Origin: a phage
Assembly (NCBI GenBank): GCA_028130375.1
Contig: GCA_028130375.1_3658.1
Reading direction: 5' to 3' (one strand)
Length of the DNA: 64,000 nucleotides
The notes under the pieces were generated by a model. That model was given only the letters and a program-made list of their open reading frames with translations. It did no database searches and was not told where the DNA came from. Both the position numbers and the translations under genes were made by a program. Shown one piece after another: positions 18,804 through 29,060 of the stretch. Position 1 is the first letter of the stretch; each line of letters opens with the position of its first letter.

Positions 18804-19037
18804 TTAATCTTCGTAAATCAGGATTTCTGCTTTAGGTTTTCGTGCTTTCAGGTCCAGCTCTATCCAGTGCACCATAGCTGTTTCAAGAAAAACAGCTTGG
18901 ATGCATCCGTCCTCAGCGTGCCCCACCAACATAACGAGATCTTCACCTTCGTCATCTGCATCACGAACATAAAGAATCTCTCCAGATTCGAAGTCTTTCA
19001 CAACCTGATTGCTAGATAATTTTCTAATTTTTGCCAT
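18804..19037 (-). CDS. Small paralogous protein, array member 4 (divergent)
   Basis: 77 aa; shares the G-x-V/I..V and I.ILGE/IEIL themes of the three upstream 87-aa genes. Confidence 0.45.
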   Translation of the reverse strand: MAKIRKLSSNQVVKDFESGEILYVRDADDEGEDLVMLVGHAEDGCIQAVFLETAMVHWIELDLKARKPKAEILIYED

Positions 19038-19038
19038 A

Positions 19039-19302
19039 TCAGAAACCCTCTAAAAAGCTCTTGTAGAAAACAATCTCAGTATCCACACCAGTCACAATCT
19101 TGTCGTTCCTGATTTCATCGGTAAGATAGGTGTCAAAACGCAGAACCTGTGTGGTGTTGTCACACATCCACTCAGCTGTGACCATTGCGAAAATCTTAGC
19201 ATCTTCATTATCTGGTGTGAATGTTACCACCTCACCGCACTTAAACTTTTCGATAGGCTGAGTGTTAGCTTTCGGTTCTGCGATAGTGATTTTTGTGGTC
19301 AT
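19039..19302 (-). CDS. Small paralogous protein, array member 3
   Basis: 87 aa; CGEVVTF...IVFY pattern parallels the neighbouring paralogs. Confidence 0.5.
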   Translation of the reverse strand: MTTKITIAEPKANTQPIEKFKCGEVVTFTPDNEDAKIFAMVTAEWMCDNTTQVLRFDTYLTDEIRNDKIVTGVDTEIVFYKSFLEGF

Positions 19303-19565
19303 TATTCTCCTCCTTCTTTTGAATAGCTTGTCTCTCCAAGGATGGTAATTTTGGTGTCAAGCTCTGTAACTTTCATGTTTGGCGGCAGATCGTACAACTC
19401 ATTATTTTCTAAATCGAACCCCCACACACAATGTTCTCCTGTTTTGACAATCATAACTATGTTTTGAATGCCGTCTCCGTCGCAACTTACCACGGTCCCA
19501 CACGGAAAACTGTCTGCACGCTTTTTGTTCTTCACCTTAGAATTGAATACAATGCTGGTAGCCAT
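19302..19565 (-). CDS. Small paralogous protein, array member 2
   Basis: 87 aa; MATSIVF..CGTVV...ITILGE; start and stop overlap its neighbours. Confidence 0.5.
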   Translation of the reverse strand: MATSIVFNSKVKNKKRADSFPCGTVVSCDGDGIQNIVMIVKTGEHCVWGFDLENNELYDLPPNMKVTELDTKITILGETSYSKEGGE

Positions 19566-19828
19566 TATTGTTCCTCCACCATAACTTCGCCAAGAATTTC
19601 TATGCAGGCATCCATTTCTGTAACAACCAAACTGTGAGGCAGTTCTACAAACACCTTTCTGAACAGGTCAAATACCCCAACATATATGTTTGCAGGATGT
19701 GATTTTACAACAAGTGCTGTATTCACATCCCCAAGTTCATCAACAAACATCACCACAGTGCCTGGAGCTACTGAGGACAGATACTTCTTAGTTTTACGGT
19801 TTGATGCAAATTTTAACTCTGTTGCCAT
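19565..19828 (-). CDS. Small paralogous protein, array member 1
   Basis: 87 aa; MATELKF..PGTVV...IEILGE. Confidence 0.5.
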   Translation of the reverse strand: MATELKFASNRKTKKYLSSVAPGTVVMFVDELGDVNTALVVKSHPANIYVGVFDLFRKVFVELPHSLVVTEMDACIEILGEVMVEEQ

Positions 19829-19843
19829 AAATAACCTCCTCTC

Positions 19844-21325
19844 TTACTTAGCGTACTCGATTAATTCCACAGTTTTCCCAAAGCTCGGGATATAATTTTT
19901 ATTATACCCCTCAGTGAGGACCCATAGAGTATCGTACTTTTTCCACTTGTTGTCAACAACCTTTTGTTCAAAGTTATGCTCAAAGTATAGGTCGGTCAGG
20001 ACGATGACATCTTTTGCATTAGGTATGTTGGCATCCAGATACTCGAACACGCAAGCAGCTGTTGTGCCCCATGTTGAGTGGACCTCATAGTTGACCATCT
20101 CGTCTATGTTGCCGCGAGTGTATACTTTAACCTCTCCAACCTCAGTTGACCAACAGAACATTGTAACCTTAAACTCTTTATACAGATTGCACAATCCGGT
20201 GATTTCATTGAACATTTTCTTTAAAGTTCTTTGAGAGATCGAGCCAGAAACGTCTAAAGCCACCACAATATCTATAGTGTTTTCCGGATTACGACCAGGA
20301 ACAATAACGTGCTGGTTCTTGTTTATAGCCCCAACTTTTCGCATTGTGCTGGTCAAAGACCCAGATCGGCGACCAGGTTTTCTGTAGGTCAGTTCGGCCT
20401 TTCTTTTAGACAACATACGTTGCTTAATGATGTCTATATAGTTGATTACAGGCTTACCTCTGTTCTTGACAAACTCACGCACCGCCTCAGGGCAACGGCC
20501 TCCGGACGCTTGCATTGCTGCCTCCAGCATATCACCAGAGTCCTGCATGGCCTGATCTTTATCAGATTGGCTGATTACAGGTTGTGGCTGATCATACCCC
20601 ATAGCCTTTCCAAGATTATCACTGGTGCCACCGTTCCCACTCATGTGATCATCGGTTTGTCGCTTATCACTTTGAGAGTTCTCACCTTTACCGTTCTTAC
20701 TTTTACCGTTATTCTGATCTCTTTGCTTATCAAGAACTGCATAAACGTTCTCAGCAATCCATCCATGAAACTTCATGTCGCAGTAGCAGCTGGCTAAGAA
20801 GCCAAAAGGCTTACCTTTCATGAACGTAGTGCTTTTCCCCTTCGGGAAGAAAACACAAGGAGGTTTGCTAAAGTCAACCACAAGGCCTGTGTTGATAACG
20901 TGATCACAAGCAATATTGAACAGTTCCGGCTCAAAGCTTTTACCACGGACTAGGTGATCACAGATAATATGCCCCACCTCATGTGACAGAAGGAAGGCCA
21001 CCTCTTTCACAGATTTTGGGGAATAGAAAACTTCAGCCATCTCAAACTGCTCGTCAGTTAGAGAAGCCTTAAGAATAGCCTTGCGTTCATCAGCCAATCC
21101 CATAATGAACTCAGGACTGTAATAGATGCGTTTATGGTCGGTTGCCATGGTGGAGCACCATGTGTGGTTTTCTACGAACTGCAACCCTGACAGTAGTGTG
21201 CCATAAAACGGCAACTTTTCAAGGAGATACATACGTGCAGCCTGCAACATTCTCAGGGCATCATCTTTCTGCGAGGCAATGATTTCTGAACTTCTGCTAT
21301 CCATTAAAACTCCAGAAGGGGCCAT
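19844..21325 (-). CDS. VWA-domain protein with N-terminal HExxH metallopeptidase-like domain
   Basis: 493 aa; HEVGH zinc-binding motif in the N-terminal half; MIDAS-type motif DVSGSIS within DIVVALDVSGSISQ in the C-terminal half. Confidence 0.75.
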   Translation of the reverse strand: MAPSGVLMDSRSSEIIASQKDDALRMLQAARMYLLEKLPFYGTLLSGLQFVENHTWCSTMATDHKRIYYSPEFIMGLADERKAILKASLTDEQFEMAEVFYSPKSVKEVAFLLSHEVGHIICDHLVRGKSFEPELFNIACDHVINTGLVVDFSKPPCVFFPKGKSTTFMKGKPFGFLASCYCDMKFHGWIAENVYAVLDKQRDQNNGKSKNGKGENSQSDKRQTDDHMSGNGGTSDNLGKAMGYDQPQPVISQSDKDQAMQDSGDMLEAAMQASGGRCPEAVREFVKNRGKPVINYIDIIKQRMLSKRKAELTYRKPGRRSGSLTSTMRKVGAINKNQHVIVPGRNPENTIDIVVALDVSGSISQRTLKKMFNEITGLCNLYKEFKVTMFCWSTEVGEVKVYTRGNIDEMVNYEVHSTWGTTAACVFEYLDANIPNAKDVIVLTDLYFEHNFEQKVVDNKWKKYDTLWVLTEGYNKNYIPSFGKTVELIEYAK

Positions 21326-21333
21326 TGGCCCCT
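21316..21333 (-). terminator. Hairpin terminator for the 21338-22381 gene
   Basis: aggggcc-att-ggcccct palindrome with T-run on the - strand, immediately downstream of the stop at 21338. Confidence 0.45.
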
Positions 21334-21337
21334 GTCA

Positions 21338-22381
21338 TTATTTAACGTGTTTGAAAATACCTGCCAACTCGGTCATTGTCATGCGGGTGGTCTTCATAAG
21401 ATCTGTCATAGCTTTCTCCATAATTGGAGATACTACCATAAAGTTTCCTTTAGTGAAACCTTTATTCCAGTCGGTCACCAACAGGGGTTTAAGTCCAGCT
21501 CCAAGACGTTCACCAGTTAAAGCACAGCATTTGCGAATATACGAACTCTTAAATTGGCTGAACGACAGATCAACTTTCATACCTACATCGTAGAACGTTT
21601 GACAATAGAAAGTGTAAGCTTTGGCAATCTCAACATCATCAGGTAGTGCAGGAACCTCTTCTGTAAGCCCCTCTTCGACCTCCTGAGTCTCTTTTTCCTC
21701 TTCATGCACCTGTTGCGTCATTTCTTCAATCTCTTCTGTGATAGGCTCGTTTACAATGTCGGAAATGTGCTTCTTGGGTGCACGATAAGTAACTTTAGAC
21801 ATCGGTAGCATATCTTCCTCCTCTTCTTCGTCAAAGAGTGCTAGTTTATCCTCTTCCGTTCCATATTGCAAGATGAAATCTTCAAAAGTATAATCACCTT
21901 TCAATTTCTCCATACGCTCTTCGCTCAGGTGGAGCATCATCTGCTGGACAATTTTTCGATCAGTTTCGTCTTTAATCAAGACTGCAGTCTTTTTATCTAC
22001 CAGACAGTCCTTTAGAGAGTTGCATCTCAATCCCACCACACAACAGTTATCAACCGCATAAGGACCTTCATCATCTATCCGCTCCAGGGATGGGTAGAAA
22101 GGATTCCCCAGCCCGTTTTCATCTGTGTGCATGTCAAAAGGTATAAGGGTATAGTCGCATACTCCATCTCCTAAAAGTTTTTTACCAAATAGGAGGTATT
22201 CTTCCCATGACAGGTCGAACTCTATATCTCGTTTCCGTGCGTTATTCTGTTTGCGTCTATATTTTTTGAGCAAGCGCTCTAACTCTTCTGGTGTATAATA
22301 TTTTTCAAGATTCATGAGTCGTCTCTCGTGCTCTGTAAGTGAAGAAATCGTATCAATTGTCTCAACAGATGTCAACATCAA
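21338..22381 (-). CDS. Hypothetical protein with two Cys-containing modules and an acidic linker; internal start candidate
   Basis: 347 aa; module ERIDDEGPYAVDNCCVVGLRCNSLK and a second CCALTGERLG...module; Glu-rich linker; internal RBS gaggagga + ATG (MSKVTYRA) lies in a 29-bp inverted repeat. Confidence 0.55.
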   Translation of the reverse strand: MMLTSVETIDTISSLTEHERRLMNLEKYYTPEELERLLKKYRRKQNNARKRDIEFDLSWEEYLLFGKKLLGDGVCDYTLIPFDMHTDENGLGNPFYPSLERIDDEGPYAVDNCCVVGLRCNSLKDCLVDKKTAVLIKDETDRKIVQQMMLHLSEERMEKLKGDYTFEDFILQYGTEEDKLALFDEEEEEDMLPMSKVTYRAPKKHISDIVNEPITEEIEEMTQQVHEEEKETQEVEEGLTEEVPALPDDVEIAKAYTFYCQTFYDVGMKVDLSFSQFKSSYIRKCCALTGERLGAGLKPLLVTDWNKGFTKGNFMVVSPIMEKAMTDLMKTTRMTMTELAGIFKHVK

Positions 22382-22388
22382 AAACGTG

Positions 22389-22417
22389 TTGACTTTACTC
22401 TAACTCCACAATATAGT
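22389..22417 (+). promoter_or_regulatory. sigma70-like promoter TTGACT-17-TATAGT in divergent intergenic region
   Basis: TTGACT 22389-22394, 17-bp spacer, TATAGT 22412-22417, about 40 bp before the 22458 start. Confidence 0.55.
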
Positions 22418-22457
22418 GCACCCATTCGAAAGAAAACTAACATAGGAGCACTTACTT

Positions 22458-23357
22458 ATGGCAAATCTTAACAGTTTTAGTACGCGGTGGAAACAGGACA
22501 TAACAACCAATCTTTCAGCTGGGGACATCCTTTCTGCAATTTACGAGGCTTTAGATGATAAAGCTACTTCAAAAGCGGTTTGTACCAACCCATTAATTCC
22601 TATAGTGATGAAGGTTATTGAGCGTAGATTGGTATCTGGGTCTGATAAGTGGACATATTTAGATAATGAAGGACACACCTATTCCAATGGGTATGTCGAT
22701 ATAAAAGTAGAATACGCGGTATCATACCGCCGGAGCGGTTCTGTAACTTTCAACTTCTCTGGAGGTTTTCGATCTCTGGCTACCTCACCTTTTGTTTCCT
22801 CAGAGGAGAAGTATGAGCTGCCATTTCTTTGGATGATGGCTAACGCGACAGGAAAAACCCCCGTTAGCATCCGAGTAAAATACAACTACAACGGATCTAG
22901 TAAGATCTATGCCGAAAGTGTCTCAGCAAGTTTTTATTTTGTGATGGGGGATGGAATCCTCAAACATATAAAGATGTGCGATATGCATGATGTTATAAAT
23001 GAAGTGACTGATAAGAATGTTCTAGTGAAAGACCTCAACAATTTTTATACACCTGGAGACTATTACGTCAGCCGTCCACTGTGCATCTTTAATGCCGCAC
23101 ACCCTCTAGGTGAGTATTTGATCGCCAATAGCGATATTGCCAATAACCGCTTCGAGGTAGCAAGAGTTCAGAATGAGGTATTGACATCTTGCAAGAGCGG
23201 TGATAAGTTTACCGAAGAAGAGATGGGTGTTTTAGAAATGATGGGATATAAGTGTAGCCTTTGGGTAGATGAGGTGTTTAATGATTGCATCTATGGACAG
23301 GATATTTACCCATTAAAGAAGTATACTGATACAAGTTTAATTTATGCGAGGGTTTGA
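22458..23357 (+). CDS. Hypothetical protein
   Basis: 299-aa ORF opening the + strand block. Confidence 0.55.
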   Translation: MANLNSFSTRWKQDITTNLSAGDILSAIYEALDDKATSKAVCTNPLIPIVMKVIERRLVSGSDKWTYLDNEGHTYSNGYVDIKVEYAVSYRRSGSVTFNFSGGFRSLATSPFVSSEEKYELPFLWMMANATGKTPVSIRVKYNYNGSSKIYAESVSASFYFVMGDGILKHIKMCDMHDVINEVTDKNVLVKDLNNFYTPGDYYVSRPLCIFNAAHPLGEYLIANSDIANNRFEVARVQNEVLTSCKSGDKFTEEEMGVLEMMGYKCSLWVDEVFNDCIYGQDIYPLKKYTDTSLIYARV

Positions 23358-23632
23358 CTATGATGAAGGCATGTGGTAATGTATATTACGTCGGTGAACA
23401 TGTTCAGGCAGACAGTGTGTGGAAATCTATTAAGTCCACCACTGACGATGCCTTTCTGAGTGGACTATGTTTCCCCAATCCGGGAGACATCCTCCCTCAT
23501 CCTGGAGATTTTGTTGTCAACAAGATGGACGGTTATACCGTGTGCCTGATGGTTGAAAAAATCTTTTTAGACACTAGACACAATCACCGTCTTGTGTTAA
23601 AATTTCAAGAATGTAAAATGACAATTGCCTAA
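23354..23632 (+). CDS. Hypothetical protein
   Basis: 92-aa ORF, start overlaps upstream stop. Confidence 0.45.
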   Translation: MTMMKACGNVYYVGEHVQADSVWKSIKSTTDDAFLSGLCFPNPGDILPHPGDFVVNKMDGYTVCLMVEKIFLDTRHNHRLVLKFQECKMTIA

Positions 23633-23645
23633 GGAGACCTTACCG

Positions 23646-24002
23646 ATGTCTAAAGTTACTTATCGTGCAGCTATTTACTGCAATGAACACCCAATCAATA
23701 ATGATGGTCACTGCCTTTTTAAAGAAAATCAATTGGGCTGTATTGTCCTCCCTGATGAAGGGGAAGGTTATCTGATTGCATTGACAGGGTTTGAACCTGA
23801 GGCTCTGGAAGCCAATCTGGACTACCTGGTAGAAGAGGGTGCTGCAGACCTGGTTGCCAATGGCCTCTCCATAAGCCTTGACGAAGTAGAGCGCTTCATG
23901 GGCAATTACCGTGTAGTGCGTGAGTTTACTATCGAGGTGGAAACTCCCGAGTGGGGTAGCCATGAAACTAATGCCGAAGAAAAAGAAGAGGAGGTAGAAT
24001 AA
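23646..24002 (+). CDS. Hypothetical acidic protein (starts MSKVTYRA)
   Basis: Start moved to ATG 23646, preceded by aaggagacc; the first 8 codons are identical at DNA level to an internal segment of the 21338-22381 gene. Confidence 0.5.
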   Translation: MSKVTYRAAIYCNEHPINNDGHCLFKENQLGCIVLPDEGEGYLIALTGFEPEALEANLDYLVEEGAADLVANGLSISLDEVERFMGNYRVVREFTIEVETPEWGSHETNAEEKEEEVE

Positions 24003-24259
24003 TGAAAGTGCAGATCTTGACTAATGCCGAGAAGATGTTTATTGAAGATACACCTTTTGAAGCTGGTGAGCTACAGTTCGTTTATTTTGTTGACTTAGAT
24101 AAGGTGTTTCCTGCACTGAATCTAGGTTTGGATGAAGTTCCTCATAAGGTTTTGTGCCAAGTTGTTCGTGCCTTGGCGGCAGAGGGGGAGTTCCACACCC
24201 TTCAAGATGTCCAGACCTACGGGTATCTTGAACTACAACGAGAAGAAGAGGTGGACTGA
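24002..24259 (+). CDS. Hypothetical protein
   Basis: 85-aa ORF, ATGA overlap with upstream gene. Confidence 0.45.
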   Translation: MKVQILTNAEKMFIEDTPFEAGELQFVYFVDLDKVFPALNLGLDEVPHKVLCQVVRALAAEGEFHTLQDVQTYGYLELQREEEVD

Positions 24260-24261
24260 TA

Positions 24262-24642
24262 ATGGCTCAGTGGAAGACAACAGTTGACCTTCATGATCAG
24301 TGGTTAGGACGCATCACTGAAGACGGGAAGCTAGTGGAGTGGGACAATAAGCATGTTAGCGAGTTGGCAAGTATTGTGGCTGGCAAGTTACGCTCCAAGT
24401 TCCCTGAACAACTGGATCCTGATAGTTCAAAGTTCGATCCTGAGTTAGAGGATGTTGTATACTACTTCGACACCGTTGATGACTACGACGCGTGGTTTGC
24501 AGCACGGGAGCTTTACCCACAAGGCTCTGCTATGCGCCAGATGGAAGAAGATTATCCTCCGTGTGAGCAATTCAATAGTGCAATGACTTGCCTCTATGAT
24601 TGGGCAGATAAGAACCTTGTCTGGATTCGGACTGCATTTTAG
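24262..24642 (+). CDS. Hypothetical protein
   Basis: 126-aa ORF. Confidence 0.5.
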   Translation: MAQWKTTVDLHDQWLGRITEDGKLVEWDNKHVSELASIVAGKLRSKFPEQLDPDSSKFDPELEDVVYYFDTVDDYDAWFAARELYPQGSAMRQMEEDYPPCEQFNSAMTCLYDWADKNLVWIRTAF

Positions 24643-24686
24643 TGGGCAGGAATGGCGGCAAGGATGCTGCTTAAGGAGTAGTAGAG

Positions 24687-24956
24687 ATGTTATACCAGCA
24701 ATATGAACTTCGTGCAGAAAAAGAGTTAAATTTTGACAAAGATATTCACAGATATTATTATGGGAAAGTTAGAGGGCAAGCAAGAAAGTGTACTCCAACA
24801 CTCTTTTATGCCAGCAGACGACTAGCGCCAGAAGAGGCAACAGCAGAAAGGGTTGCGTACAACTGGAGAGTCACGTATGATATTGACAGATTCGATGTGA
24901 TATCTGTTTTGGAAAACTTTGAAAACACTTACACACAAGTAGAGGACTTTTACTAA
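24687..24956 (+). CDS. Hypothetical protein
   Basis: 89-aa ORF. Confidence 0.45.
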   Translation: MLYQQYELRAEKELNFDKDIHRYYYGKVRGQARKCTPTLFYASRRLAPEEATAERVAYNWRVTYDIDRFDVISVLENFENTYTQVEDFY

Positions 24957-26140
24957 TGTCAAGAAACGTATTCGAAAGTGGTCAAATCACTGTCCGTGAG
25001 TTGCCAGCTATTATTCAGTTTGCCCAACGTCATAGCCGATCTGTCCTAATTTTGGGACCAATGGGTGTGGGTAAAAGCCAGGTGATGAAGCAGATCGCTG
25101 ATAATATGTTCGGTGAGCGAGATGACAACCTTGTTGACGTGCGACTGTCAGATAAAGATCCTGCCGACTTATCTGGGCTACCTATCCCTGTAGAAGCGGA
25201 TGGAACTACACGTACAGTGTTTGCAATTCCAGAATTTTGGCCTGCGGATCCTGACTGGAGCGGAATTATCTTTCTGGATGAGCTCACTCATGCAGATAAC
25301 TACCTGCAAAAGGTTGCAATGCAAATTATGCTTGACCACAAGTGCGGCACCTATGCATTCCCTAAGGGTTCTGTTTTTGTGGCTGCGGGTAACCGTTCTA
25401 CAGATGGTGCGGTTCTTTCGGCGCTCGAAGCCCCTCTGGCTAACCGTTTTATCATTGTAGAGGTTACAAGCAATGCAGAGGTGTTTATTGAGGACTACGC
25501 ATTCCTCAACGGGGTTCACTCCTCTGTAATTGGGTATCTGAAAAGAGTTCCATCAGCTATTGATAATTATGAGGCTATGGCTGAGATTAATTGTCCATCT
25601 TTTGCCACACCACGATCTTGGGTTGCTGCATCTGACATCTTGCACGATTTTGACAGCGGTATTATTTCTGACGCTATGGCCCGTGTTCTTCTACAAGGTG
25701 CTATTGGTCACACTGCAGCGGTAGAGATCTGGACTTACCACACCAAGAAACGTAATTTACCGGAAATCGGTCGGATTATGGCAGGTGGCTGCAAAGAATA
25801 CGTAGGTCCTAAGCAGCCAGACATTTTGTGGATTCTTGGATCTGAAGGTTGTATCGCTATTCGCAATATGATGGAAAATGCAAGTATCTCAGACGAAGAT
25901 CTTGTCAGCTGCGTGGCAAACTTCCTCGATTTCCTTTGGGAAAACTTCAAGGACGAGAACCGAGATTTTGTATTCTCAGTCTTTATGGCGATGATGAAAC
26001 CTAATGCCTTAGGAAATGCCTTGCTTATCGGTAAAGGGCGTGACAAGATTGTTGCTCAGCTGATCAAAGCATACCCAAACCTGATGAAGATTGTAAAAGA
26101 GTTTGGTGAAGAGTTTAGCGCCATTTTGGCTAAAGCTTAA
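24956..26140 (+). CDS. AAA+ ATPase, MoxR/CobS-like
   Basis: 394 aa; Walker A GPMGVGKS, Walker B IIFLDELTHA, sensor-like AAGNRS. Confidence 0.8.
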   Translation: MSRNVFESGQITVRELPAIIQFAQRHSRSVLILGPMGVGKSQVMKQIADNMFGERDDNLVDVRLSDKDPADLSGLPIPVEADGTTRTVFAIPEFWPADPDWSGIIFLDELTHADNYLQKVAMQIMLDHKCGTYAFPKGSVFVAAGNRSTDGAVLSALEAPLANRFIIVEVTSNAEVFIEDYAFLNGVHSSVIGYLKRVPSAIDNYEAMAEINCPSFATPRSWVAASDILHDFDSGIISDAMARVLLQGAIGHTAAVEIWTYHTKKRNLPEIGRIMAGGCKEYVGPKQPDILWILGSEGCIAIRNMMENASISDEDLVSCVANFLDFLWENFKDENRDFVFSVFMAMMKPNALGNALLIGKGRDKIVAQLIKAYPNLMKIVKEFGEEFSAILAKA

Positions 26141-26150
26141 GGGGGGTTGT

Positions 26151-26531
26151 ATGGCTAAAGTAGGTAAGCGGGGAAACTACCTGGTGGTATTGACCGAGGA
26201 GCCGGAGAAGGAGTACGAATGCAGCTCCACTTGCGTGATCGATATCCGAGAAAAAGATGTAGATGAAGTCTGGTTTAAAATATTGGACGCTTGCGATAGC
26301 AGTGATTATTTCTTCATTTATGTCAACGATAAGGCTGGATTCTTCCATGACGACGGAGAGTTGCCGTATGAAATCTATGAACTTGTAGAGGCTTGCCATC
26401 GTGGAGATGCGGAGTTGTTTGGCCTACGGCTGAAAAGCGGTAAATTCTTCTATCAAGATGAGTGCATGAATCTTCATAACTTTGTAGAGGGAACTTGCAA
26501 CGATGGAGAGATTTTGGCACACTACGATTAA
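26151..26531 (+). CDS. Hypothetical protein
   Basis: ORF trimmed to ATG 26151 after RBS aagggggg; 126 aa. Confidence 0.45.
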   Translation: MAKVGKRGNYLVVLTEEPEKEYECSSTCVIDIREKDVDEVWFKILDACDSSDYFFIYVNDKAGFFHDDGELPYEIYELVEACHRGDAELFGLRLKSGKFFYQDECMNLHNFVEGTCNDGEILAHYD

Positions 26532-26543
26532 TTTCTAAGACCT

Positions 26544-26570
26544 CCCCCGCTTCGGCGGGGATTTTCTATT
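26544..26570 (+). terminator. Rho-independent terminator (ccccgc-ttcg-gcgggg + T-run)
   Basis: Same hairpin as at 114-129, followed by attttctattt. Confidence 0.65.
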
Positions 26571-26580
26571 TGGAGTCATT

Positions 26581-27081
26581 GTGAAAATTAAGATCTTTGC
26601 TATTATTTTGAGCGCACTTTTATCGCTGCCTGTTGTTGCAGCACCAAAACAAAAAGTATATCATACTTGCAAGCCATCAGATACTAAGGAAAACATTCTG
26701 GCATGCAATATCTACAGGGAAGCTAGAGGAGATGGCACGATGGGTATGCTGGCATCTGGGTTTGCCACACTAAACAGGAAATCCCACCCTAAATACCCAG
26801 ACACTATAAGAAAGATTGTCTACCAACCTAACCAGTTTTCGTGGACAAACCACGGCAAAACTTTTAAGGTGACAGAAAAAGATTCATGGGATCACGCTAA
26901 AAGTCTTGCAAAGATGCTTCTAAAGGTCTATAATAACAACCATGTTGCATACATGGCTATGGACATAACAGGTGGAGCAACACACTACCATACAACCAAA
27001 GTACGACCGAAATGGGCAAAAAAGATGCAGAGGACAGCTCAATTCGGGAGCCATATCTACTACAAGGAGCGCAATAAATGA
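26581..27081 (+). CDS. SleB-family cell-wall hydrolase with N-terminal signal peptide
   Basis: 166 aa; signal-like MKIKIFAIILSALLSLPVVAAP; NIYREARGDG...TLNRKSHPKYPDTIRKIVYQPNQFSW closely parallels the SleB catalytic core as I recall it. Confidence 0.8.
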   Translation: MKIKIFAIILSALLSLPVVAAPKQKVYHTCKPSDTKENILACNIYREARGDGTMGMLASGFATLNRKSHPKYPDTIRKIVYQPNQFSWTNHGKTFKVTEKDSWDHAKSLAKMLLKVYNNNHVAYMAMDITGGATHYHTTKVRPKWAKKMQRTAQFGSHIYYKERNK

Positions 27082-29060
27082 TTGTAAACAGTAATGAAAC
27101 TAAAGCAGTGCTGACCGGAAATATGGAGGTCACCAGGGGCTCAATTTCTCTGAACAAAGAGACTTTTGGGCTAATCATTAAAGGGATTTACGAAGATAAG
27201 GTGCTGGCAAGCTGCCGTGAACCAATCTTCAATGCTGTGGACTCCCATGTTGAGTCTGGACGGGGTGATGTACCGATCATCATTCACTCTCCTACAGACC
27301 TTGAACCATACTTCTTTGTGCAGGACGTTGGATTGGGCATGTCAGAAGAGATGGTCCGCAACACTTTCATGAATCTCGGGGAGTCAACCAAGCGCAACAG
27401 CAACGCTCTGGTAGGTAATAAAGGTGTAGGTTCAAAGGCCCCGTTCAGCATGGTGGACACTTTCGATGTGATTAGTGTGCACAACGGTGTTGAAAGCACA
27501 TATCTATTGTTCTTGGATCAGGGTATCCCAAACGTTACCAAGATCCGCGAGCGGAAGACTGAAGAGCACAACGGGGTAAAAGTTCAGTTCCATGTTAAGA
27601 AAGAGCATGTTCTGAAATATCGCACTGCTATTGCGTCATGCCTACGCTATGCAAAGTTTCCGTTTACCGTTACCGACCCTATGACCAGTAAGATGCTGGA
27701 AGGTGACAAGGTTGAGGCGCAGTATCGCTACGAGAAAGATGGTTGGAAAATGACTATCCTGAAAGGTTATACCAGTTCTGATGAGAGCCGTGTTGTGATG
27801 GGTCACCAACCTTACCGCTCTAAGTTCCTGGAGACATTGACCGATTACCCTGCAATCTGCGTGGAAATTCCTATTGGGGATTGCAATATTAACCCTGGGC
27901 GTGAATGGACCATAGAGGGCCATGACGACGGTGGATTCCAGGATCGCCTGGAGGCCTTTGTCAAAGAAGGTATACGTCTTCGCGGGGCAGAAGTTGTTGC
28001 AGAACTGGAGACGGCAAAAACCTCCGCAGAAGCACGTGAAATGATGAAGAATAGTGGGGTGTTCGGACACATCTTCGGCAAAAACTTTATGTGGAACCGT
28101 TGGGAAGAAACAGGACTTGGAGACTTAGGCGATTGTGAAATTTTCGCTGGCGGCTTAAATAAAGGCCGCATAGGCTATGCTCGTTATGGAAAGTCAGAGT
28201 TCTTACGGGGAGTCTATTTAGTATTTAACGACGGAGACGGCAAATATAACCGAAATAAGTGTAACTACTTAAGCGAGATCACCGGACGCAACGTTTTCTA
28301 TTGCCGTAACACGGATCTGGTGGAAGAGTTTAAAGAAGCGGCACACCACCCGTTCTTTGCAGATACGGTCAAATTGTTATCAGAGCTCCCTCGCCGACCT
28401 GTCAAGAAAGGTGAAACAAAAACTCGTTATGAGCCAGGCTATTGGGTTAAAAAACTTGAGAAGGATGGTTACTTCCGCCGTGAGCGTATTACTAAGGCAG
28501 AGTTCCGGAAGATTAAACACTGCATCCCTTATGAGGGTGATATCCAACGTGGAAGTTGTTGGCTGGGGCAGATGAGTAACATCTACCAGCAAGATTATGA
28601 CCGTGTACGTGCGGCACTTCAGATTCCTGAAGGTGAAGATCTGTATCTGGTATCTGAATCTCGTCTGCTTTGGACTGATCCTGATTGCCAGTATGTTACA
28701 GAGAAGAATGTGGAGCACCTGTTGAAAGAGGATGCTTGGAAATTCTTACTGACCCGTGCAGCAAATGAAACTTCTTATGACAGCCTGTATAGACAATTAG
28801 GGAAAATTATTCCCATGCAAGATTTTGGAAATTATCGGCCACATTTCCACAAGTGGGAAGGTAACACCACGTGGAAGCACAGTGAGCTAAATCATCGTGC
28901 CAAAATCTTAATCGCCAACCGAGTTAAATGCGGGAAGGCCTATATTGCAAGATTGGAAAAGAAATACCCACTTTTGAAGCATGTAGGCTTGAAATATTGG
29001 GACACCCCTGCTATGATTGAATACCGTGAGCTGATTGATACAAAGAATAACACCAAATAA
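27078..29060 (+). CDS. rIIA: rIIA-like protein (GHKL ATPase fold)
   Basis: 660 aa; N-box EPIFNAVDSH, G1 QDVGLGM, G2 GNKGVGSKAPF; immediately upstream of an rIIB homolog. Confidence 0.85.
   Translation: MIVNSNETKAVLTGNMEVTRGSISLNKETFGLIIKGIYEDKVLASCREPIFNAVDSHVESGRGDVPIIIHSPTDLEPYFFVQDVGLGMSEEMVRNTFMNLGESTKRNSNALVGNKGVGSKAPFSMVDTFDVISVHNGVESTYLLFLDQGIPNVTKIRERKTEEHNGVKVQFHVKKEHVLKYRTAIASCLRYAKFPFTVTDPMTSKMLEGDKVEAQYRYEKDGWKMTILKGYTSSDESRVVMGHQPYRSKFLETLTDYPAICVEIPIGDCNINPGREWTIEGHDDGGFQDRLEAFVKEGIRLRGAEVVAELETAKTSAEAREMMKNSGVFGHIFGKNFMWNRWEETGLGDLGDCEIFAGGLNKGRIGYARYGKSEFLRGVYLVFNDGDGKYNRNKCNYLSEITGRNVFYCRNTDLVEEFKEAAHHPFFADTVKLLSELPRRPVKKGETKTRYEPGYWVKKLEKDGYFRRERITKAEFRKIKHCIPYEGDIQRGSCWLGQMSNIYQQDYDRVRAALQIPEGEDLYLVSESRLLWTDPDCQYVTEKNVEHLLKEDAWKFLLTRAANETSYDSLYRQLGKIIPMQDFGNYRPHFHKWEGNTTWKHSELNHRAKILIANRVKCGKAYIARLEKKYPLLKHVGLKYWDTPAMIEYRELIDTKNNTK

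Follow-up and report, generated by a model that had tools for sequence, protein, structure and literature searches.

A predicted MoxR-class ATPase and a VWA-zincin protein encoded as a divergently split pair in an rV5-like phage of Escherichia coli

The stretch of phage DNA considered here, 64,000 nucleotides of contig GCA_028130375.1_3658.1 (assembly GCA_028130375.1; hereafter the window, whose numbering is used throughout), derives from a Vequintavirus, i.e., an rV5-like phage of E. coli. Over the 8 kb surrounding the two genes which are the subject of this report, its identity to Escherichia phage Murica is 99.9%, and 122 phage records reach at least 90% identity, nearly all of them from rV5-like Vequintaviruses of E. 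coli. One of the two genes codes for a fusion between a zincin-like domain and a von Willebrand factor A (VWA) domain, and the other for a predicted AAA+ ATPase of the MoxR class; their products are homologues of phage N4 gp25 and gp24, respectively (Table 1). The genes lie on opposite strands, pointing apart, and are separated by 3,651 bp (21305-24955). This is the layout described by a first reading made from the letters alone (the sequence-only reading), which had placed them about 3.6 kb apart on either side of a divergent promoter region, and back-to-back sigma-70-like promoters are indeed predicted between them.

Conserved motifs of the two proteins

Pfam assigns two domains to the VWA-zincin protein. 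The first, DUF2201_N (PF13203, "putative metallopeptidase domain"), spans residues 96-321 with a score of 99.1 bits for a cut-off of 23.2 (4e-28), and is followed on its C-terminal side by DUF2201 (PF09967, "VWA-like domain"; 44 bits for a cut-off of 26.4, 3e-11, residues 353-488). Sequence alignment of 23 diverse homologues revealed that H115, E116, H119, H124, A139 and D141, which include the residues of the putative zinc site, are invariant. [quoted passage not shown] The combination of a MIDAS-containing VWA domain with an N-terminal HEVGH domain, which had been noticed from the sequence, is thus supported by significant Pfam matches and by the invariance of both sites, and the alignment that had been suggested as a check of the MIDAS finds this site intact. 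A further conserved segment of the protein, RPxRR, is found at residues 315-320. By structure comparison, the VWA half resembles the MIDAS domains of NorD and Rea1. In addition, 12 of the 23 homologues give weak matches to VWA_CoxE, CoxE being the type of VWA partner that serves the MoxR ATPase CoxD.

The open reading frame (ORF) initially delimited at 19844-21325 is present, and only its start has to be revised. The gene most likely begins at 21304, giving a protein of 486 aa, and not at 21325, because the ATG at 21325 is located inside a GC hairpin and lacks a Shine-Dalgarno sequence, whereas the ATG at 21304 is preceded at 8 nt by GGAG and agrees with the starts of homologues and of GenBank records.

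In the ATPase, all catalytic motifs are intact, and no variation of their key residues is seen among 22 aligned relatives, which reach down to 27% identity and include one bacterial sequence. As no Pfam family is matched directly, the MoxR assignment rests on the Pfam domains of the relatives, on a profile search and on the predicted fold. Relatives at 31-35% identity bear PF07726 (AAA_3) and PF07728 (AAA_5), the family profile matches midasin AAA domains (E = 1.5e-13), and the top Foldseek superpositions of the AlphaFold2 (AF2) model, which has a predicted local distance difference test (pLDDT) score of 81, are by template modeling (TM) score the MoxR structures NorQ and CbbQ2 (TM 0.59-0.61, target-normalised). 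A search of NCBIfam gave no match for this protein. Since relatives at 31-35% identity carry both PF07726 and PF07728, the window protein is predicted to be a divergent member of the MoxR-class AAA+ family and not a non-member. The Walker A and B motifs that the sequence-only reading had ascribed to a MoxR/CobS-type ATPase are therefore present, with relatives, profile and fold pointing to the MoxR class and not to CobS. The identity of a CobS/CobT cobaltochelatase was rejected, as no CobS, CobT or chelatase family is found among the Pfam and NCBIfam matches of either protein. Between Walker A and Walker B, the family also conserves a segment, DVRLSxxxPxDxxGxP...AxPxFWPxDP, which may correspond to the helix-2 insert and pre-sensor-1 beta-hairpin of AAA+ clade 7; residues 68-89 of the model have a pLDDT below 50.

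Table 1. Coordinates of the two genes, their motifs and the neighboring features in the window
Feature	Position	Strand	Evidence
Zincin-like (DUF2201_N) + VWA (DUF2201) fusion gene, 486 aa, N4 gp25 homologue	19844-21304	-	Pfam; phrog_1314 7e-123
Putative zinc site	20903-20983	-	HEVGH 20969-20983, H124 20954-20956, D141 20903-20905
MIDAS residues	19985-20254	-	DVSGS 20240-20254, GTT within 20060-20071, TD within 19985-19999
MoxR-class AAA+ ATPase gene (predicted), 394 aa, N4 gp24 homologue	24956-26140	+	ORF; phrog_1297 "ATPase" 2e-110
Walker A GPMGVGKS (residues 34-41)	25055-25078	+	G37, G39, K40, S41 invariant, 22 sequences
Walker B IIFLDE (residues 104-109)	25265-25282	+	L107, D108, E109 invariant, 22 sequences
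Sensor 1 AAGNRS (N146) and arginine finger LANRF (R164)	25382-25450	+	A144, G145, N146, R147, N163, R164 invariant
Sensor 2 TPRSW (R220)	25607-25621	+	P219, R220 invariant, 22 sequences
Back-to-back sigma-70-like promoters (predicted)	22347-22417	both	leftward 22375-22347 TTGACA-17-TACGAT; rightward 22389-22417 TTGACT-17-TATAGT
Srd/anti-sigma-like gene, first of the leftward unit	21338-22315	-	phrog_3118, phrog_4592, phrog_1400; annotated "anti-sigma factor"
GC-rich hairpin AGGGGCCAATGGCCCCT between Srd-like and VWA genes	21317-21333	-	annotated terminator in Murica
Small gene upstream of the ATPase	24262-24642	+	phrog_6318; kept in all split-type relatives with the ATPase in reach
Small gene upstream of the ATPase	24687-24956	+	stop overlaps ATPase start (ATGA)
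Intrinsic-terminator-like hairpin ending the rightward unit, one gene past the ATPase	26545-26560	+	annotated terminator in Murica and Gotham

Co-occurrence of the pair and its split arrangement

Loci were fetched around homologues of each gene and then searched with profiles of both proteins, a partner being counted within 10 kb; for the scan of contigs for VWA homologues, a sub-alignment of the diverse alignment was used as profile. Around viral VWA genes, an ATPase of the same family was found in 92 of 97 loci, four of the five exceptions being contigs that end just upstream (92/93 assessable). Similarly, the ATPase is present in 77 of 80 bacterial VWA-centered loci, and the contigs of the other three are incomplete (77/77 assessable). 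Reciprocally, viral loci centered on the ATPase contain a VWA-zincin gene in 70 cases out of 80, and in nine of the ten others the sequence stops no more than 200 bp away from the ATPase (70/71 assessable). Only two assessable loci, L012 and L211, have one gene and no partner within 10 kb. That the two families normally form a pair, as had been stated in the sequence-only reading, is in full agreement with this near-complete conserved adjacency in phages and bacteria, and their co-occurrence in relatives, the lack of which would have counted against the same reading, is what the counts reveal.

Outside the close relatives of the window phage, the order is always ATPase then VWA gene, on one strand and usually less than 300 bp apart, as on the chromosome of Sulfurivermis fontis. 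Such a same-strand ATPase immediately upstream has been seen in bacteria, N4-like phages, Certrevirus and aquatic viral contigs. In the window, the position immediately upstream of the VWA gene is not taken by an AAA_5-type ATPase, which is found on the opposite strand 3.6 kb off; the arrangement is different and the partner is not absent.

Direct homologues of both proteins are encoded by N4. The homology with gp24 (27% identity, E = 3e-28) and gp25 (E = 2e-20) extends over most of both proteins, the domain content is alike and, in both phages, an rIIA-like gene is located a few kb off. The N4 genes are adjacent on one strand with the ATPase first, whereas those of the window are divergent and 3.6 kb apart. 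The proteins differ as well: the Vequintavirus VWA protein has, ahead of the HExxH helix, a helical insertion that is extra relative to gp25 and takes up about 37 alignment columns, and, compared with gp24, the ATPase has a longer C-terminal helical region. gp24 and gp25 belong to the 14 core genes of N4-like phages (Schitoviridae), among which they are listed as "unknown" and "vWFA domain" (PMC4193335), and a passage of the same work citing Kazmierczak and Rothman-Denes (2005) counts them among the middle genes.

A pair of the same architecture as in the window, formed by a MoxR ATPase and a vWA protein with an N-terminal metallopeptidase domain, has been described in group 2.2 jumbo phages as a chaperone/co-chaperone pairing (Iyer et al., 2021; PMC7824862), and tblastn searches found the two families in Atu_ph07, phages of the G17/7t3 type and Yersinia phage fHe-Yen9. 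That study deals with jumbo phages only and proposes a function in virion assembly; the 137-kb Vequintavirus members and the split within an early-type region lie outside its coverage. In bacteria, DUF2201 proteins (e.g., Sulfurivermis fontis, Chromatiales) show both Pfam domains and the invariant residues of the HExxH...H...D and MIDAS sites, and are accompanied upstream by an AAA_5 ATPase of the same partner family. Their genes are chromosomal and strictly adjacent to the ATPase gene (77/77), and the proteins are 21-25% identical to the phage protein.

Across the 97 viral and 80 bacterial loci, only these two genes are common to all lineages, and no third partner or client emerged from the conserved neighborhood. 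Two candidate identities were rejected: 1) the vWA-MoxR-VMAP ternary conflict system, in which a VMAP component joins the couple and variable effector domains are fused to the vWA protein (Kaur et al., 2020; PMC7159879), and for which neither a conserved third (VMAP) gene nor PADLOC hits were found, and 2) a known defense or anti-defense component, for which nothing significant was found in PADLOC or NCBIfam.

The split layout, with the Srd-like and VWA genes on one side of the promoters and the ATPase unit on the other, is shared by every relative whose VWA protein is 43-97% identical to that of the window, i.e., by 17 loci from several genera. In all 17 of them the VWA gene immediately follows the Srd-like gene, which is preceded in 16, some 60-70 bp upstream, by a near-consensus site of the TTGACA-17-GATAAT type. 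On the other strand, 3.4-5.1 kb away, the ATPase of split-type relatives directly follows the homologue of gene 24262-24642. As neighbors of the pair, this small gene, gene 24687-24956 and the Srd-like gene are confined to split-type genera. Certrevirus members of the same subfamily, namely phiTE and four metagenomic contigs at 33-36% identity, have the MoxR gene ahead of the VWA gene on one strand, either 17-40 bp apart or, in phiTE, with an inserted HNH gene in between. Since the adjacent order holds in Certrevirus, in all other phage groups and in bacteria, gene order identifies the split as a derived, stable and lineage-specific rearrangement and not as an oddity of one genome. In a comparison for rearrangement breakpoints, phiTE_055 exhibited no homology to the Srd-like gene.

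The predicted leftward unit comprises, from its promoter onward, the Srd-like gene, the GC-rich hairpin, the VWA-zincin gene and a series of small genes, while in the rightward unit the promoter is followed by six small genes, the ATPase gene, a further gene and a terminator. PhagePromoter predictions in the Gotham record fall on the same two promoter sites, independently of the consensus scan used here. Regarding the hairpin between the Srd-like and VWA genes, it is possible that it acts as a partial terminator or attenuator. The top sigma-70 match of the region (24733-24761, + strand; TTGACA-17-TATTAT, 11/12) is located inside ORF 24687-24956, about 195 nt 5' of the ATPase start, and could provide the ATPase with a promoter of its own.

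The divergent promoters are also flanked by a perfect 29-nt inverted repeat, TACCGATGTCTAAAGTTACTTATCGTGCA, with arms at 21779-21807 (-) and 23641-23669 (+) and 1,833 nt between them; none is expected by chance. One arm, within the Srd-like gene, is translated as an internal ..MSKVTYRA; the other spans the start codon of gene 23646-24002, and the product of this gene begins with MSKVTYRA. The perfect pair is present only in Murica-type genomes, rV5-type relatives having only the copy on the side of 23646 and more distant relatives none. This repeat may be the scar of a recent gene conversion or a substrate for inversion of the promoter segment.

Proposed mechanism and competing explanations

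Collectively, these data make it likely, in our judgment, that the two genes form a single conserved module, in which a MoxR-class ATPase and a VWA-zincin protein carry out ATP-driven, MIDAS-targeted remodelling and proteolysis in early or mid-infection. Judged by the alignments, none of the residues needed to hydrolyse ATP, to carry out zinc-dependent hydrolysis or to bind the MIDAS metal has been lost from the two proteins, which are inherited together. A mechanism can be proposed by analogy with NorQ/NorD, for which it is reported that an ATPase hexamer associates with one VWA adaptor, that the MIDAS metal binds an acidic residue on the client and not on the ATPase, and that ATP hydrolysis is transmitted through the adaptor (PMC9976466, PMC13036017); NorQ and NorD still interact when the MIDAS is mutated. 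Likewise, the phage ATPase would form a hexameric ring on which one VWA protein docks, and the metal of the VWA MIDAS would grip an acidic residue of the client protein. Hydrolysis of ATP would then drive the remodelling of this client or of the adaptor, allowing the attached zinc-peptidase domain to cleave the client, and the pair would work as an ATP-dependent metalloprotease/chaperone of two components. A rearrangement has put the genes of Vequintavirus and several sister genera in two divergent units predicted to fire from one back-to-back pair of host-type promoters and, because both units would fire from this pair, co-expression early in infection has probably been retained despite the split. 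From the host-type promoters, the nature of the neighbors (Srd-like, rIIA/rIIB) and the status of N4 gp24 and gp25 as middle genes, we infer an early or middle expression of both genes.

This mechanism is reminiscent of the couples NorQ/NorD, CbbQ/CbbO, RavA/ViaA and CoxD/CoxE. The predicted fold of the window ATPase is closest to NorQ and CbbQ, and the VWA half with its full MIDAS resembles NorD. The VWA partners of these couples contain no HExxH peptidase-like domain, and their known job is metal insertion or enzyme reactivation. As the catalytic Glu of the HExxH motif is invariant in the family, ATP-assisted proteolysis, or the proteolytic maturation of a captured client, is here favored over pure metal insertion. 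Another virus-encoded MoxR plus VWA couple, according to the accounts cited in PMC7159879 and PMC7824862, is the MoxR (p618)/VWA (p892) pair involved in tail development of the Acidianus two-tailed virus; this is an archaeal virus, and its VWA partner is described as having no peptidase domain (PMC7824862).

Several observations weigh against the proposed module. In the literature searched, CRISPRi-ART and transposon screens included, no experiment or functional data were found for any member of the two families (DUF2201, COG3864, rV5 MoxR, N4 gp24/gp25). The window ATPase scores under every Pfam AAA gathering threshold (AAA_5, 16.7 bits for a cut-off of 22). The N-terminal domain of the VWA-zincin protein has weak M48/SprT-like similarity, and the structure search returned no close solved structure for it, which makes the peptidase role a putative one. 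In terms of secondary structure, the compact DUF2201 VWA domain has no obvious long finger such as the one that NorD inserts into the NorQ pore, and docking on the ATPase may therefore differ from that of NorQ/NorD. As for transcription, sigma-70 consensus matches over the whole region are not above chance (21 found for 15.6 +/- 3.9 expected). Finally, the genes are farther apart in one sub-lineage: around the VWA gene of locus L012 no ATPase lies within 10 kb, and in Salmonella phage NINP13076 (MZ326168, a 161-kb record) the genes are on the same strand about 35 kb apart (96376-97794 and 133185-134348). With more than 10 kb between the genes, co-regulation through a shared promoter region is impossible in these two cases, the layout of which is either a real second rearrangement or an assembly artefact.

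Concerning the client, a non-structural protein acting in early or mid-infection, i.e., a host protein or a phage protein of the replication phase, is somewhat more likely than a virion protein, since the host-type promoters, the early-type neighbors, the middle region of N4 and the ordinary chromosomal contexts in bacteria point somewhat away from virion assembly. A non-structural client is accordingly ranked slightly ahead of virion assembly, with metal insertion and functional independence of the two genes well behind. In its most specific form, which we put forward tentatively, the pair would be a trans-acting ATP-dependent metalloprotease that acts on a non-structural client in early or mid-infection, and not in virion assembly, and that serves N4-like, rV5-like and jumbo phages as a general device of takeover or maintenance. 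If so, the conserved co-transcription with the Srd-like gene in split-type genera would be a clue to the pathway.

Held just as tentatively is the possibility that the module is an effector of host takeover or counter-defense, which would capture and then cleave or disable a host protein early in infection, such as a factor of defense, transcription or RNA decay. The VWA gene is co-oriented with the Srd/anti-sigma-like gene and directly downstream of it in 17/17 split-type genomes, the promoter type suggests early expression, and the pair is near rIIA/rIIB in rV5-like and N4-like phages, rII genes being known to counter Rex exclusion (PMC11879866). However, the core status of the pair in N4-like phages of very different hosts (PMC4193335) is more in line with a universal role internal to the phage, free-living Gammaproteobacteria have retained the same module by vertical descent, and no matches to known defense or anti-defense models were found.

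More doubtful is a function as virion-assembly chaperone/protease, in which the module would fold or assemble structural proteins of the tail, fibers or head and trim them. Iyer et al. (2021) proposed this for the jumbo-phage pair of MoxR and vWA-metallopeptidase by analogy with tail growth in the Acidianus two-tailed virus (PMC7824862). Moreover, a few virion-protein genes are near the gp24/gp25 homologues of roseophage RPP1 (PMC4193335), and in the window the leftward unit with the VWA gene abuts the lateral tail-fiber gene. Yet the window genes are in units with host-type promoters, among small early-type genes, the Srd-like gene and rIIA/rIIB, and outside the structural module; the N4 pair consists of middle genes adjoining the gene for dCTP deaminase; and bacterial homologues are in chromosomal contexts which do not resemble prophages (thioredoxin, ferrochelatase, Lon). 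In addition, no structural gene co-varies with the pair across lineages.

Metal-cofactor insertion or enzyme activation without proteolysis, with the HExxH domain reduced to metal binding or client recognition, appears improbable. Most characterised MoxR/VWA couples (NorQ/NorD, CoxD/CoxE, CbbQ/CbbO, CobS/CobT) do fulfill such a role (PMC9976466, PMC13036017, PMC7159879), and the weak VWA_CoxE matches would fit it, as would two features of the neighborhoods: 1) in N4-like phages the pair is found amid genes of nucleotide metabolism, coding for dCTP deaminase and, in RG-2014, for dUTPase and thymidylate synthase, and 2) a ferrochelatase gene is nearby in 17 of 80 bacterial loci. However, not only the metal ligands of the HExxH motif but also its general-base Glu is invariant in the 23 distant homologues, which points to hydrolysis; neither protein matches a CobS, CobT or chelatase family, and no client enzyme is consistently linked to the pair in viral or bacterial neighborhoods.

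Finally, it is highly improbable that the genes are functionally independent in the window lineage, with the split a decoupling and the resemblance to a pair merely historical: they are on opposite strands, 3.6 kb apart with other genes and two promoters in between, and more than 10 kb apart in NINP13076 and L012, but every split-type genome examined keeps both genes with all catalytic residues (43-97% identity), the two have diverged to a similar degree in the same split-type relatives (50-98% identity for the ATPase, 43-97% for the VWA protein) and, among assessable loci, L012 and L211 are the only ones with one gene and no partner within 10 kb.

Public annotation, use of the module and neighboring genes

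Public records and publications already contain the two genes, their domains and the notion of the pair, which has been described in N4-like and jumbo phages. In the GenBank record of Murica, the VWA gene is labelled gp12, "metallopeptidase, contains von Willebrand factor domain", and the ATPase gene gp4, "ATPase"; across the Murica, CarlMeissner and rV5 records, the latter bears the label "ATPase / MoxR ATPase". What is added here is modest, and consists of the quantified reciprocal co-occurrence, of a split that, on gene order, is derived and common to several genera, and of a corrected start codon. As a finding of a genome scan, the locus thus adds little, because both genes and the pair concept are already public, and it points to convenient model phages in which to look for the client of a core module of N4-like phages.

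The module is among the few gene pairs, neither replicative nor structural, that are common to very different large lytic phages (N4-like, where it is core, rV5-like and jumbo) and to many bacteria. Vequintaviruses are easy to work with, examples being the BASEL collection phage Bas48 CarlMeissner and EdH4, to which CRISPRi-ART has already been applied, and the split layout allows each gene to be perturbed with no polar effect on the other. Owing to this ease of handling and to the split arrangement, they are a convenient system for finding the client.

Several labels in circulation deserve mention. In PHROG, the label "HNH endonuclease" is given to the VWA-zincin family (phrog_1314) as well as to the Srd-like family (phrog_3118), and phrog_13164, which corresponds to the 89-aa ORF 5' of the ATPase, goes under "ATPase". 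RefSeq and other records have taken up these labels, as in NC_041871, which lists "HNH endonuclease (x2), ATPase (x2)". A Pfam search revealed no HNH or ATPase features in the VWA-zincin, Srd-like and 89-aa ORF proteins that bear them.

Directly downstream of the VWA gene, three abutting ORFs of equal length (87 aa) follow one another on the same strand (19039-19302, 19302-19565 and 19565-19828). Two of them are paralogues (39% identity, E = 6e-12), and all three are confined to the closest relatives of the window phage. On the other side of the locus, the ATPase unit's terminator and rIIA flank a gene (26581-27081, +) for a SleB-like cell-wall hydrolase (Pfam Hydrolase_2, 2e-19) whose N-terminus is hydrophobic and signal-like; the gene is hence in an early-type region and not in a lysis cassette. 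An rIIA-like gene is present within a few kb of the MoxR/VWA pair in N4 (L262), in the N4-like loci L086, L093, L096 and L099, and in rV5-like phages (27078-29060 in the window). This linkage may simply reflect a shared early/middle module.

Lastly, 16 GenBank records entitled "Campylobacter phage", with Campylobacter jejuni as host (e.g., MG065635 and MG065647), are 98-99% identical to positions 19000-27000 of the window. Such an identity to an rV5-like phage of E. coli suggests that these deposits were assigned to the wrong host or contaminated.

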